Assembly (NCBI GenBank): GCA_963826785.1
Contig: CAWGYD010000005.1
Coordinates: forward strand, 288,001-352,000
Direction: 5' to 3'
From: an uncultured delta proteobacterium
GTDB taxonomy: Bacteria; Desulfobacterota; Desulfobacteria; Desulfobacterales; Desulfosalsimonadaceae
DNA: 64,000 nt
The notes under the pieces: model-generated
Database searches by the model: none
The model's input: the letters and a program-made list of their open reading frames with translations, nothing else
Told to the model about the DNA's origin: nothing
Shown: positions 6,105 through 27,308 of the stretch, piece by piece
Layout of the letters: each line of letters opens with the position of its first letter
Numbering within the stretch: the first letter of the stretch is position 1
Translations under genes and position numbers: made by a program

Positions 6105-6577
6105 CATAAGCGCTAACTTAACGCATAGTATCCCCCCCGTAATCATCCTTTATGTCATTCCGGCAGTCTTTTAGCCGGAATCCATCTAAATGATTGCGGG
6201 ATACAAATCCTCCCAATCGGGATTCGTTCTCTCAATCAAATGCATTTTCCACTTTCGTTTCCAGTCTTTCAATCGTTTCTCTCGCTGGATAGCAGATTCC
6301 ATACTTCCATGAAGCTCATACCAAACCAAAAAATGGACTCCATACTTTTTGGTGAACCCTTCCACGAAATTGTTTCTATGTTCCCAAACTCGCTTGATGA
6401 GGTCGGAGGTCACACCGATATAAAGGGTGCCGTTTCTTTTATTTGCAAGAATGTATACCGCTGGTTGCCTGTTCATTTCGTCTTCCTGGATTCCGGCTTA
6501 AAGACTGCCGGAATGACGCTCTTAAGAGGAACGACAAATTAGAAGATATTGCATCGGTCATTAAGTTAGCGCTTATG
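6105..6577 (-). mobile_element. Element B copy 1: non-autonomous IS231-like cassette carrying a REP-flanked GIY-YIG gene (473 bp)
   Basis: Perfect 17-bp TIR CATAAGCGCTAACTTAA/TTAAGTTAGCGCTTATG; 11-bp direct repeat CCCCTGACCCC at 6094-6104 and 6578-6588. Confidence 0.9.
6186..6476 (-). CDS. Stand-alone GIY-YIG nuclease family protein
   Basis: AVYILANKRNGTLYIGVTSDLIKRVWEH...AIQREKRLKDWKRKWK; flanked by inverted hairpins 6154-6184 and 6487-6518. Confidence 0.92.
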   Translation of the reverse strand: MNRQPAVYILANKRNGTLYIGVTSDLIKRVWEHRNNFVEGFTKKYGVHFLVWYELHGSMESAIQREKRLKDWKRKWKMHLIERTNPDWEDLYPAII

Positions 6578-6683
6578 CCCCTGACCCCCCTGCCAGGGGG
6601 GAATTAAGGGGTGGCGTGCCTTCACCGTGAATGTCAGTTCCTTTTACAAAAACACCGCACTGCGGGGTGGGGTGCTTTCAAAC

Positions 6684-14757: not shown

Positions 14758-16584
14758 TCAATTGCTCAACACCTCCCGCATCTGCATCCGCCAGCTTTCC
14801 GCGTATCTTCCGCCGTTTTCAACCAGCTGTTCATGTGCCCCGGATTCGACAATCCGGCCGTCTTCCATGACATGAATGATATCCGCATGCATGGCCGTGG
14901 TGAATCGATGGGTGATGATCAAAACGGTGTGCCCTGCGCTCAGTTCCCGGAACCGGGCCAGCCATTCGGCTTCGGCCCAGGAATCCATGGCACTGGTGGG
15001 TTCGTCTAAAACAATGATGGACGCATCCCGGAAAAATGCCCGCGCCAGGGCAAGCCGCTGCCATTCACCCACGGAAAGCTCCGCCCCGCCGAACCATTTC
15101 CCCAGAACCGTATCATATCCCAGTGGCAGCTTTCTGATGATCGATTTCATGCCAGACGCCTGGGCCGCTGCATCAATTTTATCCTTATCATCAGCGTCAT
15201 CCAGCGACCCCAACGTGATATTTTCTGCGGCAGTCGTGTGATAATGAACCGGCTCCTGAAACAGGACCGTGATCTGCCGCCGCAATGATGCCAGGTCCAT
15301 CTCCCGCAGATCCTTGCCGTCCACCCGGATTTTGCCTGTTTGCGGATCATAGAACCGGCACAGCAACTTGATCAGCGTGCTTTTGCCGGACCCATTGTGC
15401 CCGACGATGGCCGTTACCCGACCGGCTTCAAGTGAAAGTGAAAAGTTTTCAACAGCAAAACGCTCACTTCCCGGATATGTAAAGGATACATCTTCAAACC
15501 GGATTTCCCGGCGCACTTCAAAATGAGCAGCTTCGGCCGATGGGTTGTCGTTGACTTGGGATTCGATGGCCAGAAATTGAAAGAGGTTTTCCAGAAAAAG
15601 GGTGCTGCGGTAGATCTGCCCCGTGCTGGAGAGCATGGAGCGGAGTAAGGCCTGCCCCTGCTGAAATGCCTGGTAGCACAGCACCAGGTCGCCCAACTGC
15701 GCCACGCCCCGCAGGGTGCGAAGCAGCATCCATCCGATGCCGATCAGTCCGCCGCTCCAGGCGACCAGCCCCGCGATCAGTTCGGTCTTCATCTCATCCC
15801 GGGCCAGTCTGAGGCGTCCGGAGCGAAGGCGTGAACGCACACGCCGATACTGATCCCGGAAATGCGGCCCCAAACCGAACAATCGGACTTCTGCAGCGCT
15901 TTCCCTCTCCGTCATCAGCCAGTCATAATACCGCACCAGCCGGTTGTTGATGGTGTTCTTCACCCGCCACTTATGTTCCCGCAGGACGAAGTTTCCCACC
16001 ACCCACAGGCCGGGCAGGGCGCTTGCGATCAGCAGCAGCGGCATCCAGAAGGCGTATCCCGCCAAAAGAACGGCCAGGGCCAGCAGCGTGACGGAGTTTT
16101 GGATGAAATTTCCAAGGTTTTCCAGAAGATTCAGCGGTTGATGGATGGCATCCACGCTGGCGCGATACAGCAGGTCATAGGAGTCCGGATGATCGTAAAA
16201 GGACATATCCAGGCCCAGTGCCTTTGCGTGGATCAGGTCATTGATGTGGTCCTGGACAAATTCGGCCTGAACGGTCCGTGCCCGGTTCACCAGGCTGGAG
16301 AGCACCTGGCTGAGGACCCACAATACGCCCATCACCGCTACGGGTGCCCACACCGGTGAGAATTTATCAAAAACTGTCCCGGGCGTTCCGGCGGCTCCCG
16401 CCAGAATATTGACCACGTACCGGATCATGTACACCAGCGCGGCCGGCACCAGTCCCTGGAGCAGAAGGAGCATGCCCCACAAAAGGGTCCATTGCCGCGC
16501 GGCCCGCCACACCAGCCGGATGCCCCGGCCCATTAACGGCAATCGTGAAAGAAATTCATTTAATGCGGCTTTTAGCATGATCAA
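14758..16584 (-). CDS. ABC transporter, fused permease/ATP-binding (peptide-export type)
   Basis: N-terminal TM segments; GHNGSGKST, LSVGEWQRLALARA, VLDEPTS, ITHRF. Confidence 0.92.
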   Translation of the reverse strand: MIMLKAALNEFLSRLPLMGRGIRLVWRAARQWTLLWGMLLLLQGLVPAALVYMIRYVVNILAGAAGTPGTVFDKFSPVWAPVAVMGVLWVLSQVLSSLVNRARTVQAEFVQDHINDLIHAKALGLDMSFYDHPDSYDLLYRASVDAIHQPLNLLENLGNFIQNSVTLLALAVLLAGYAFWMPLLLIASALPGLWVVGNFVLREHKWRVKNTINNRLVRYYDWLMTERESAAEVRLFGLGPHFRDQYRRVRSRLRSGRLRLARDEMKTELIAGLVAWSGGLIGIGWMLLRTLRGVAQLGDLVLCYQAFQQGQALLRSMLSSTGQIYRSTLFLENLFQFLAIESQVNDNPSAEAAHFEVRREIRFEDVSFTYPGSERFAVENFSLSLEAGRVTAIVGHNGSGKSTLIKLLCRFYDPQTGKIRVDGKDLREMDLASLRRQITVLFQEPVHYHTTAAENITLGSLDDADDKDKIDAAAQASGMKSIIRKLPLGYDTVLGKWFGGAELSVGEWQRLALARAFFRDASIIVLDEPTSAMDSWAEAEWLARFRELSAGHTVLIITHRFTTAMHADIIHVMEDGRIVESGAHEQLVENGGRYAESWRMQMREVLSN

Positions 16585-16723
16585 TCTATGATGAAATTGA
16601 AAGAAATCGGTTCAATATTGATGAAGCCGTAAAAAGTCGGATTTTACGCTTTCGTCATTCCGGCGGAGGCCGGAATCTACAACAAACTAAGTTGGTTATA
16701 GACTCCGGTTTTCACCGGAATGA

Positions 16724-18571
16724 GTGCGTCCGTAAAGGCGCCATATCAGCACGGTGTAAGTCCGTGTCGGGGTAAGCCAAGGCCCCGTAGTCGAGGGTAA
16801 CTGCGTCACCGCGAGGTGGGGTGGAGAGCAACCGGAGACGAACTGGCGGTCCGCAGGATGACGAACTTGATTCGGCGGGATGCAGCGACGAGCCTGCTCA
16901 TTCATGGTGAAGTCCGAAAATCGTCCGGTACGCTGGGTATTGGCGCGTAAAGCGGTGCCGGGGCGCATCACGTGGTTGGAGGTGGAACGCCGGAAAGGTG
17001 TGGCGAGATAAGCGGAGAGACCTGTTTGCGAGGTGACGCAGGCAGGAGTCAGAGCCTTCATAGTACCGAAGCAGCCGATGCTGCGGAAAGCGCGGGAAGC
17101 AAAACCGTGCCGAGGGAAGGGAGGCAGGAAGGTAGATGCGTGAAATCCAACGACAGGCAAAGCATAAGCAAAGCGCCGGCAGTGCCGGTAACGGCTAAGC
17201 AAGGCGCAGAGACCGGGCATCGGGACTGGTGCTGGGTGGAAGCCTCGATTTGGACGCCGCGCATGCTGGCGGCGCTGGAAAACGGCGTCAAAGGAGGCAA
17301 GTGGTTCAGCTTGATCGACAAGCTGGTTCGTCCCGGCACCCTGGAACTGGCGTGGCACAAGGTCGCGCGAAACAAGGGGGCGGCCGGAGTGGACGGGCAG
17401 AGCGTTGAGCGGTTTTCGTTGAAGGCGGATAAATATCTTAAGGAGCTGGAAGAAGCATTGAAGGCCGGCACTTACCGGCCGCAGCCGGTCAAGCGCGTGG
17501 AGATACCCAAAGGGCCGGGTCGCACTCGACCCCTGGGCATTCCGGCGGTAAAAGACCGCATCGTACAAACTGCGCTGAAGCTGGTAATAGAGCCGATTTT
17601 CGAATGGGACTTTCTGGATTCGAGCTATGGCTTTCGACCTGGACGCGGATGCAAAGACGCCCTGCGGGAGGTAGACGGTTTGATTAAGGCAGGCTACACG
17701 CACGTTGTGGACGCCGACCTTGCGAGCTACTTTGACACCATTCCGCATGACCGATTGATGATCCGAGTGCAGGAGCGCATCAGCGACGGGCGTATTCTGG
17801 ATCTGATTCGGGGATACCTGGGTCAGGATATCGTCCGTGGGCTGGAGCGCTGGACGCCGACCGGAGGAACTCCGCAAGGTGCGGTGATCAGTCCCCTGCT
17901 GGCGAACCTGTACCTGCATCCGCTGGATGTGCTGATGCGGACAAAAGGTTATCGCATGGTCCGATACGCAGATGACTTTGTGGTGATGTGTCCCAGTGCA
18001 GAGGCAGCGCAGTCGGCCCTGGCCGACATACGCGCCTGGGTAAAAGAAAATGAACTTACCCTGCATCCGGACAAAACCCACGTGGGAGACTGCACAGTAG
18101 AAGGACAAGGCTTTGACTTCCTGGGTTACCGGTTTGAAGCCGGAAAGCGATGGGTTCGAAAGAAAAGCCTCAAGTCCCTGCGGGAGCGTATACGGGCCAA
18201 AACCGGCCGATCCCGTGGAGAGAGCCTGGACCAGATAATAGGCAGTTTGAATCCGATGCTCATAGGTTGGTTTGGCTACTTCAAACATGCGAATCCATTT
18301 ACCTTTAAGATGATTGATGGTTTTGTCCGCCGCCGACTGCGATCTGTCTTGCGCAAACAAAAGCGACGACCGGGTATGGGTCGCTGCCTGGCCGATCATA
18401 AACGCTGGCCTAATGCATTTTTCGCTGAGCACGGGCTTTTCACCTTAACCGAAGCCCATGCTGTGGCGCGCCAGTCACGATGTTGAAACTACCAACTGGA
18501 GAGCCGTGTGCGGGAGAACCGCACGCACGGTTCGGAGGGCGGGGAGGGCGAGAGCCTTTCCCGACCCCTAT
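16724..18571 (+). mobile_element. Group II intron (retroelement)
   Basis: 5' GTGCG at 16724; domain V GAGCCGTGTGCGGGAGAACCGCACGCACGGTTC and domain VI ending CCCTAT at 18571; removal restores the MITE sequence CCGGAATGA|CGAAAGCG. Confidence 0.93.
16972..18486 (+). CDS. ltrA: Group II intron reverse transcriptase/maturase, no endonuclease domain (true start probably further downstream)
   Basis: NKGAAGVDG, RPLGIP..KDR, SYGFRPGR, GTPQGAVISPLLAN, RYADDF, FDFLGY; ends after domain X. Confidence 0.95.
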   Translation: MVGGGTPERCGEISGETCLRGDAGRSQSLHSTEAADAAESAGSKTVPREGRQEGRCVKSNDRQSISKAPAVPVTAKQGAETGHRDWCWVEASIWTPRMLAALENGVKGGKWFSLIDKLVRPGTLELAWHKVARNKGAAGVDGQSVERFSLKADKYLKELEEALKAGTYRPQPVKRVEIPKGPGRTRPLGIPAVKDRIVQTALKLVIEPIFEWDFLDSSYGFRPGRGCKDALREVDGLIKAGYTHVVDADLASYFDTIPHDRLMIRVQERISDGRILDLIRGYLGQDIVRGLERWTPTGGTPQGAVISPLLANLYLHPLDVLMRTKGYRMVRYADDFVVMCPSAEAAQSALADIRAWVKENELTLHPDKTHVGDCTVEGQGFDFLGYRFEAGKRWVRKKSLKSLRERIRAKTGRSRGESLDQIIGSLNPMLIGWFGYFKHANPFTFKMIDGFVRRRLRSVLRKQKRRPGMGRCLADHKRWPNAFFAEHGLFTLTEAHAVARQSRC

Positions 18572-18683
18572 CGAAAGCGTAAATTCGGACTTTTTACGGG
18601 TTCATCAATATTGATTCTCTATATAATCGATATGTTTGCTTAGCCGGACGGTCCGACACCCCCCTTTATCCCCCCTGGAGGGG

Positions 18684-18928
18684 CATAAGCGCTGACTTAA
18701 CGCATAGTATCCCCCCCGTAATCATCCTTTATGTCATTCCGGCAGTCTTTTAGCCGGAATCCAATGAATAGCAAAGGGTGCCGTTTCTTTTATTTGCAAG
18801 AATGTATACCGCTGGTTGCCTGTTCATTTCGTCTTCCTGGATTCCGGCTTAAAGACTGCCGGAATGACGCTCTTAAGAGGAACGACAAATTAGAAGATAT
18901 TGCATCGGTCATTAAGTTAGCGCCTATG
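18684..18928 (-). mobile_element. Element B copy 3: internally deleted (245 bp), only ~18 GIY-YIG codons remain
   Basis: Same TIRs (1 mismatch each); 11-bp TSD CCCTGGAGGGG at 18673-18683 and 18929-18939; inserted in a family-C REP. Confidence 0.9.
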
Positions 18929-19357
18929 CCCTGGAGGGGGGAATTTTCCGATATCCCCCACTCCCCCCTTGAGGGGGGAATTAAAGGGGGGGTGTTTCGG
19001 CGTCAGCCACAACGCAATCACAGATAGTCTTATACTGTAAAAACAACCTATGGTTATGCGGAAGTTACACACTTCGCGGCATATTCACATAAACACTTTT
19101 CCCATTCAACCTTTATCTTTTCGTCGATTCCCTTCAGGAGGGGGGATAAAGGGGGAGTGCAAGCCGAACACAGGTAACACTTTGGAGCTTTAACTCAAAA
19201 AAAACTGGATTCCGGATAAAAGCCTCCCGGAATGACTTAAAAGAGAAAATCCTGAATTTGTTAGGTCCCAACAAAGATTGACAACTCAATCCCTTTACAA
19301 TATTTTAATTTCATATTCAGACGGGAATTTGCAGCTTAAATTCAAACAATCAATGTT

Positions 19358-26508: not shown

Positions 26509-26835
26509 ATTCTTTTTTTCAGTCTGATGTCAGAACGCAGCATAATTCGACTTAACCCATCGCATCACCCCAGGTAGCATCCCCCCAACGTCATTCCGGA
26601 GATCTTTTATCCGGAATCCATCTCCTTCATCCGGCATTCCGGCCCGATCCCACAAACATCATGACAACACTGGTACTGGTCACCCAACAGCATTGCCCGG
26701 CTCCGTTTCACCGGAAGCTCAAAATTTATCTTCCGTTTCTTCTTCCATAGCATTCCATTCCCCCCTCGAGGGAGGCGCCCACATTCCATTCCCCCCTCGA
26801 GGGAGGCGCCCACATTCCATTCCCCCCTCGAGGGG

Positions 26836-27308
26836 CATAGGCGCTAACTTAATGACCGATGCAATATCTTCTAATTTGTCGTTCCTCTTAAGAGCGTCAT
26901 TCCGGCAGTCTTTAAGCCGGAATCCAGGAAGACGAAATGAACAGGCAACCAGCGGTATACATTCTTGCAAATAAAAGAAACGGCACCCTTTATATCGGTG
27001 TGACCTCCGACCTCATCAAGCGAGTTTGGGAACATAGAAACAATTTCGTGGAAGGGTTCACCAAAAAGTATGGAGTCCATTTTTTGGTTTGGTATGAGCT
27101 TCATGGAAGTATGGAATCTGCTATCCAGCCAGAGAAACGATTGAAAGACTGGAAACGAAAGTGGAAAATGCATTTGATTGAGAGAACGAATCCCGATTGG
27201 GAGGATTTGTATCCCGCAATCATTTAAATGGATTCCGGCTAAAAGCCTGCCGGAATGACATAAAGGATGATTACGGGGGGGATATTATGCGTTAAGTTAG
27301 CGCTTATG
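26836..27308 (+). mobile_element. Element B copy 2 (473 bp, inverted relative to copy 1)
   Basis: TIRs CATAGGCGCTAACTTAA / TTAAGTTAGCGCTTATG; imperfect flanking repeat CCCCTCGAGGGG / CCCCTTGAGGGA. Confidence 0.9.
26937..27227 (+). CDS. GIY-YIG nuclease, near-identical to 6186-6476 (REK changed to PEK)
   Basis: Same translation except R>P; REP hairpins at 26895-26926 and 27229-27259. Confidence 0.9.
   Translation: MNRQPAVYILANKRNGTLYIGVTSDLIKRVWEHRNNFVEGFTKKYGVHFLVWYELHGSMESAIQPEKRLKDWKRKWKMHLIERTNPDWEDLYPAII

Follow-up and report, generated by a model that had tools for sequence, protein, structure and literature searches.

A group II intron lies in the window, by which we mean the whole 64,000-nucleotide stretch of DNA analyzed here (Table 1). 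Its 5' exon ends ...TTCACCGGAATGA, and its 3' exon opens with C. Domains V and VI (18499-18571) match Rfam RF00029 with 57.4 bits, and the ribozyme outside the open reading frame (ORF) amounts to about 500 nt. The ORF follows a purine-rich SD-like stretch, encodes YADD at 17965-17976, passes TIGR04416 (387 bits against a cutoff of 300), and contains only the RVT_1 and GIIM domains, with no HNH or other endonuclease domain. Folding of domain I as a single sequence was uninformative (z = -0.56), and the Rfam D1-D4 models gave only a subthreshold match (D1D4-3, 24.6 versus 32 bits); the structure of domain I given here was derived from covariation among relatives. No sigma-70 promoter-like site was found at 16400-18800, and no terminator was found at the insertion site. 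Pieces of the intron and empty MITE junctions are both present in four DNA runs (contigs only). These sequence features indicate an intron that is real, intact, and devoid of an endonuclease. An earlier note on this DNA, made from the letters alone, had placed the intron at 16724-18571, followed by C, and had reported TCATTC at 16898-16903, CGGCGG at 16873-16878, an AGC triad in domain V, and an ORF without an endonuclease domain; all of these readings proved correct.

Table 1. Features of the intron and its host element in the window, with pairing elements as predicted from covariation
Feature	Position	Strand	Remarks
Target-site duplications of the MITE (AATATT)	left 16614-16619, right 18607-18612		
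MITE A, left part (5' exon of the intron)	16620-16723	+	
Hairpin left abutting IBS1 once EBS1 pairs	16706-16717	+	4 bp, 4-nt loop
IBS1 (GAATGA)	16718-16723	+	covariation
Group II intron	16724-18571	+	1,848 nt; begins GTGCG, ends CCCTAT
Alpha, loop of Ib	16776-16780	+	pairs with alpha' at 16940-16944 (terminal loop); covariation
CGGCGG, rejected EBS2	16873-16878	+	coordination loop and 5' strand of helix Id(iv), pairing with 16971-16973
EBS1 (TCATTC)	16898-16903	+	11-nt loop closed by 16892-16894/16906-16908; covariation
EBS3 (G)	16975	+	pairs with first 3' exon base; covariation
RT/maturase ORF	17140-18486	+	448 aa, GTG start
Domain V	18501-18533	+	33 nt; AGC triad 18502-18504, AC bulge, 5-nt loop
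Domain VI	18537-18569	+	bulged A at 18564; RF00029 match
MITE A, right part (3' exon)	18572-18606	+	IBS3 = C18572

The host element and the copies of the intron

The intron interrupts a 132-bp MITE (MITE A) with terminal inverted repeats (TIRs) and a 6-bp target duplication. The left part of the element holds a TIR, the left CGTC-type REP hairpin (16653-16676), a spacer, and the right hairpin. The interior of the MITE is an inverted pair of CGTC-type REP hairpins, of which the left arm has a CGTC tag, an 8-bp stem, and a 4-nt loop and the right arm is a variant. The tag, the palindromic stem, the 4- to 5-nt loop, and the inverted dimers are those of CGTC-tagged REPs (Di Nocera 2013), and the TIRs, the target duplication, the lack of coding capacity, and the many copies are those of a MITE. 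The same genome harbors 32 paired MITE elements, mostly of 132 bp, 24 of them with a 5- to 7-bp duplication; three carry the intron. Because the same terminal repeats surround other interiors in relatives, an intron in a REP in a MITE is a fair description, and the three-level nesting that the earlier note had proposed is supported by the paired elements of this genome. The terminal repeat occurs in 22 of 24 host-family genomes, around different interiors of 125 to 151 bp (G000, L254, L257, L262, and L264). No autonomous partner transposase for the MITE was found in G000 or in 20 loci (19 from relatives).

Three near-identical copies of the intron are present in the genome (C5:304724, which is that of the window, C5:282734, and C10:18536), all of them in MITE arms. 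They differ by 0 and 1 base, and the intron is therefore taken to have moved recently and to have been active until then. One lies in a left arm, at GAATGA/C (the slash marks the insertion point), and another lies in a right arm, at GAGTGA/C, from which it follows that GAGTGA is also a target, through a G.U wobble with EBS1; the EBS1 of the window intron fits both arms of MITE A. GAGTGA/C is also what the three intron-free MITE copies in the window read (9298, 19355, and 34669), as the earlier note had claimed. The window copy itself lies in a right arm carrying left-arm sequence from -4 to +12. This hybrid arm (16720-18583), unique in the genome, has the left-arm base at -4 and 12 left-arm bases at +1 to +12, the first 12 nt of the 3' exon, which accounts for the 7 extra bases of this MITE copy. 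It may have arisen by palindrome correction within the MITE or by co-conversion off the left-arm copy. Transposition of a MITE with a single insertion in it was rejected as the only means of spread, since copies occupy both arms and are bordered by different duplications.

Other repeats surround the locus. A 478-bp element derived from a REP dimer with a 9-nt loop occurs in inverted copies at 6105-6582 and 26831-27308, and a shorter relative of it lies directly downstream of the intron (18670-18931). Between 1781 and 33724, these repeats alternate with many copies of a C-run/G-run palindrome family and with several small two-gene modules, which resemble toxin-antitoxin or nucleotidyltransferase pairs as judged by eye from the ORF list.

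Pairing of the intron with its exons

Relatives of the intron were collected from at least 80 metagenome loci, at least 79 genome loci, 3 plasmid loci, and 9 loci from the same genome and its kin, at least 171 in all. A usable 5' end was available for 129 of 171 loci (L152 was dropped for a miscalled start), which yielded 93 nonredundant introns with 50 to 100% protein identity, 92 of them with 36 nt of exon and 82 with a 3' exon. At least 8,000 proteins, other classes included, pass a threshold of 1e-50 (8,000 of the 8,000 scored), and the intron set is thus a sample. Named hosts among the matches listed belong to the Proteobacteria, Desulfobacterota, Planctomycetota, Verrucomicrobiota, Acidobacteriota, and Chlamydiales.

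Across the 93 introns, exon positions -1 to -5 share 1.50, 1.37, 1.37, 1.45, and 1.35 bits of mutual information (MI) with positions 16898-16902, which are their best partners, in antiparallel order, with Watson-Crick pairs in 82 to 97% of cases against 25 to 36% expected. Position -6 pairs less well with EBS1 (0.60 bits; 72% with wobble). The first base of the 3' exon forms a Watson-Crick pair with G16975 in 94% of introns (expected, 78%; 0.50 bits). The mean number of EBS1-IBS1 pairs is 5.52 of 6, compared with 2.58 for permuted exons (1,000 permutations; maximum, 3.0), and 74 distinct EBS1 hexamers are represented in the set. When 46 phylogenetically independent pairs of introns were compared, 103 of the 125 exon differences were compensated, 9 were kept by wobble, and 13 were broken. 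This covariation with the last exon bases shows that TCATTC is the EBS1 of the window intron, as the earlier note had proposed. Its location, on which the note had staked the proposal, also agrees, as it lies in the 11-nt loop of Id3 on a 3-bp stem that shows internal covariation. The note had further expected other copies of the intron to have related exons; this fails for the exon sequences, which differ, and holds in the sense that EBS1 follows them and that the geometry of the hairpin before the junction is constant.

The second candidate of the earlier note, CGGCGG as EBS2, did not survive the comparison. Its CGGC is nearly invariant whatever the exon (92, 92, 93, and 88 of 93 introns), it has a structural role inside the ribozyme, and in three registers it matches the exons no better than it matches permuted ones (0.50 versus 0.52, 0.44 versus 0.45, and 0.41 versus 0.41). 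G16874 is probably delta', facing C16897. No intron column covaries with exon positions -7 to -25 among the 93 introns (best MI, 0.27 bits), alignment-free complementarity stayed at the null level in three regions, and in the consensus fold the 5' strand of Id(iv) leads into Id3 with no loop free for EBS2. An EBS2 elsewhere in domain I was rejected on the same grounds, namely, no EBS2-IBS2 covariation and complementarity at the null level. As far as covariation can tell, the lineage has no EBS2.

Hairpins and repeats at the insertion sites

In the window, the full hairpin of the 5' exon occupies 16704-16719. After removal of IBS1 from the exon, 82 of the 93 relatives still have a stem of 4 bp or more directly next to IBS1, compared with 194 of 953 upstream windows and 332 of 1,860 shuffles; it is missing in 11 of 93. 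In 77 of 92 exons the apex falls between -11.5 and -14.5, and the foot of the stem is variable and usually overlaps IBS1. The last 36 exon bases fold with a mean of -8.5 kcal/mol; the corresponding means are -3.9 in 732 upstream windows and -3.6 in 75 3' exons. At least 4 T's follow the stem in only 5 of 92 relatives, which bears out the earlier note's view that these insertions are not at terminators. Thus, comparison of the exon sequences shows the apex of a short GC-rich hairpin about 12 to 14 nt before the predicted insertion points. The hairpin is present at 37 of 41 distinct sites in ten genomes, nine of them multicopy, and the stem is shorter than 4 bp at the other 4; single introns there use hairpins of different sequence, with compensated stems (the EBS1 values of G061, G065, and L246 were left out of this comparison, as the regex had matched a wrong motif). 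No hairpin precedes the called 5' end of L068, the most divergent relative (about 50% identity). This locus branches outside the 0.945 node of the reverse transcriptase (RT) tree and may lie at the boundary of the clade that targets hairpins.

The targets of the relatives include CGTC REPs, GTAG REPs, and ends of IS91 elements. By crude regex classes, 22 of the 93 junctions end in TGA or CGA (the reverse of the CGTC tag), about 20 have a YA pattern, mostly GTAG or GTGG in reverse, 13 lie at the other end of CGTC-type repeats, and 32 fit no class. Four host genomes contain 41, 25, 12, and 7 matches to the target patterns and 0 matches to the reversed control; one family pattern, whose loop length was too narrow, was missed in 3 of 5 genomes. 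In G061, many of the matches form close inverted pairs. The target family has switched among close relatives, as neighbors with 73 to 76% identity to the window intron use CGTC hairpins, GTAG hairpins, and others.

One subgroup of introns sits at the ends of elements encoding an integrase and an IS91 transposase. Members of this sublineage (L002, L085, L118, L129, L136, L138, L141, L169, and L171-L177) lie at the terminal hairpin of integrase-associated elements, in or beside GTNC; such elements are annotated as IS91 family in L187 (NZ_CP022993, 20905-32440), where a three-recombinase (RIT-like) block is flanked by two of them that point toward each other and each carry this intron at the end. 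In L019 and L128/L212, introns stand head to tail, the 3' end of one joined directly to the GTGCG of the next, which is consistent with a second insertion at an occupied site.

Without EBS2, only about 7 bp of pairing remain, and these match 6,267 sites in the intron's own genome. All three copies are in MITE arms, and 67 of the compatible sites are empty MITE arms. With an ORF proxy, 5,895 of the 6,267 sites fall in ORFs and 372 are intergenic; 44 of the 372 are MITE arms, which gives a chance of about 0.002 for three of three copies (hand arithmetic), and for intergenic strict-match sites the preference for the MITE has a P value of about 0.045, (47/132)^3 (hand arithmetic), although three copies make a small sample with some dependence among them. 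Another REP family, which has GAATGA/C without mismatch but a 9-nt loop and an apex at -15, is occupied at 0 of 38 sites, which is not significant (about 0.27); these empty REPs fit the idea of a hairpin ruler and are suggestive only.

We consider it likely that this unclassified, endonuclease-less lineage finds its targets by EBS1, EBS3, and an adjoining GC-rich hairpin, with EBS1 retuned for each repeat family. The missing specificity would most likely come from the hairpin at a fixed distance, which is the IIC principle, and the geometry points to recognition of the hairpin by the ribonucleoprotein (RNP). An unlikely alternative is that the hairpin helps indirectly: palindromes would expose single-stranded DNA or a primer by fork pausing, cruciform extrusion, or nicks from an HUH transposase of the REP or IS91 type, and recognition would be left entirely to EBS1 and EBS3. 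Many targets are indeed REPs or IS91 ends, which are HUH substrates (PMC7923331), and the IS91 subgroup inserts within GTNC at the element end. However, such indirect help does not predict an apex whose position varies by only about 3 nt among hairpin families that are unrelated (77 of 92), and no dedicated transposase is known for CGTC REPs (PMC3733652).

It is quite improbable that the introns insert at any 7-bp match and persist only in neutral intergenic repeats. The predominance of compatible sites in ORFs would accord with such survivor bias, against which the three copies of this genome are by themselves too few. Yet 277 of the 372 intergenic compatible sites have no abutting hairpin and none of them is used, and survivor bias would explain neither why the geometry is constant nor why EBS1 has been adjusted time and again to the bases just past the hairpin. 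The model of the earlier note, IIB-type homing by EBS1, EBS2 (CGGCGG), and EBS3 into one REP sequence, is scarcely tenable. CGGCGG could pair with the CCGCCG that precedes the left-arm site, but two of the three copies have TCACCG instead, and the motif is constant across 74 EBS1 types, paired inside the ribozyme, and at the null level against the exons. Of the note's wider claim, base-pairing-based targeting of a multicopy repeat in a manner distinct from IIC introns, the multicopy targeting stands (in four host genomes), and the contrast with IIC was overstated, with some 7 bp matching 6,267 sites.

Proposed recognition of hairpins compared with known systems

Under the favored reading, recognition by EBS1, EBS3, and the hairpin, the RNP would meet single-stranded DNA, probably the lagging-strand template, and would recognize the shape of the hairpin in the manner of class C RNPs, one of which has a known structure in complex with hairpin DNA. 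EBS1 would open the foot of the stem, the RNA would then reverse-splice, and the nascent DNA strand would prime reverse transcription, as has been described for other endonuclease-less introns (PMC4424553). REPs, REP-built MITEs, and the ends of IS91 elements would be the commonest such hairpins and harmless places to sit, and EBS1 would mutate to suit whichever repeat family a new host offers. The class C analogy for hairpin recognition concerns an RNA exon (PMC1702495). As for the strand, GC skew of the flanks is positive in 24 of 32 (P = 0.007), a bias that may partly reflect gene orientation, and one of the three copies in this genome is on the C-rich strand; unclassified types favor the lagging strand in Miura 2022 (PMC8919778) as well, and from these two biases we infer use of the lagging-strand template.

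Homing sites, terminators, and attC are the three target specificities named in reviews, which, in their accessible parts, ascribe the recognition of hairpins only to class C (PMC4424553 and PMC12584367). This link would not hold for a widespread lineage outside class C that has IIE/IIF-like RNA, lacks EBS2, and keeps the hairpin in a fixed geometry, and that appears to mix two modes of targeting normally assigned to different classes of intron. This raises the possibility, which we put forward tentatively and would not insist on, of a fourth mode of target recognition between IIC and IIB, in which the RNP uses a hairpin as a ruler together with a freely reprogrammable guide of 5 to 6 bases, in a lineage specialized on the hairpins that REPs, REP-built MITEs, and IS91 ends form in single-stranded DNA and whose EBS1 mutates to track host repeats at each horizontal jump. 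If true, this mode could represent a stage before EBS2 arose or after its loss, which is relevant to the order in which the hairpin and EBS2 appeared, a point that PMC1702495 does not settle. Such an intron could be retargeted to any chosen repeat family by a six-base change, the lineage itself would supply natural matched guide-target pairs, and REPs would act as a common landing pad for retroelements.

The RT tree (FastTree) contained 124 RTs, 8 of 132 proteins being omitted because the match was too short; its deep nodes are weak, and its references, one or two each for F (g2-g5), G (g1), g6, A, and D with labels from Table 3 of Miura, do not include class E. The lineage stands apart from the labeled C (including the integron attC intron), F, g1, g6, A, and D references. 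Five labeled or integron C references form a clade that excludes it (0.876 to 0.99 with relatives, in FastTree with limited references), and identity as an IIC-attC intron was ruled out for the window protein by the same tree. The clade of the lineage includes the intron of P. aromaticivorans pBN3, a homolog with 68% identity (NZ_CP022993, 5' end 23112) that Miura 2022 (PMC8919778) lists as Unclassified, not E, in a table that pools U1, U2, and U3 under this label. The phylogeny, to which the earlier note had looked for a classification, thus places the intron outside class C, next to a homolog without a class.

Partial precedents for insertion beside hairpins exist. Many U1, U2, and g6 introns follow predicted terminators (Miura 2022, PMC8919778), and hairpins before IIB introns were remarked on by Sonbol and Siam. 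The g6 reference and one other Unclassified reference follow true T-tract terminators and branch apart from the lineage. For the Unclassified introns (U1-U3), the label of the close homolog, the accessible part of Miura 2022 has no RNA model, EBS analysis, or link to REPs; the word "intron" does not occur in that of the CGTC REP paper (PMC3733652). A description of targeting by this lineage was not found in a literature search whose coverage took in few subscription journals or theses; Wu 2018, cited by Miura, and the "additional classes, unpublished" of PMC4424553 may include it. IS elements that target REPs (PMC1525189) likewise use multicopy palindromes as safe landing sites, but through DNA transposases and not as RNA-guided retroelements.

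Class E and F introns (Cl.be.I2, Ge.ur.I1, and Pe.th.I2) resemble the lineage in their RNA. Alpha' in a terminal loop and a 5-nt domain V loop are hallmarks of IIE/IIF (Nagy et al., PMC3753933), and both are found here, as are the ribozyme of about 500 nt and the lack of an endonuclease, also features of these classes (PMC3753933). However, IIE/IIF introns carry a covarying EBS2-IBS2 pairing, which was not found in the lineage, and the RT does not group with the two labeled F references.

Class C introns (B.h.I1, GsI-IIC, E. rectale IIC, and IIC-attC) resemble it in their targeting, as they likewise lack an endonuclease and EBS2 and use EBS1 and EBS3. In them a stem-loop takes the place of IBS2 (PMC1702495), insertion of IIC introns behind "other inverted repeats" has been reported as well, and the best PDB matches of the window RT are the class C RTs 6AR1 and 7UIM. 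In contrast to class C, with an EBS1 of 3 to 4 bp, the lineage has one of 5 to 6 bp that varies freely, its sites usually lack the T-tract and the TTGT/T of attC, and its IBS1 overlaps the foot of the stem. Class C introns have a shortened domain V with a CGC triad, and the lineage has a full domain V of 33 nt with AGC. Its RT, with 37 to 41% identity, lies outside the class C clade. On these sequence comparisons, the lineage appears to target like a class C intron without being one, and the best reading is that an intron with IIE/IIF-like RNA homes in the manner of IIC, by a hairpin, an EBS1 of 5 to 6 bp, and EBS3.
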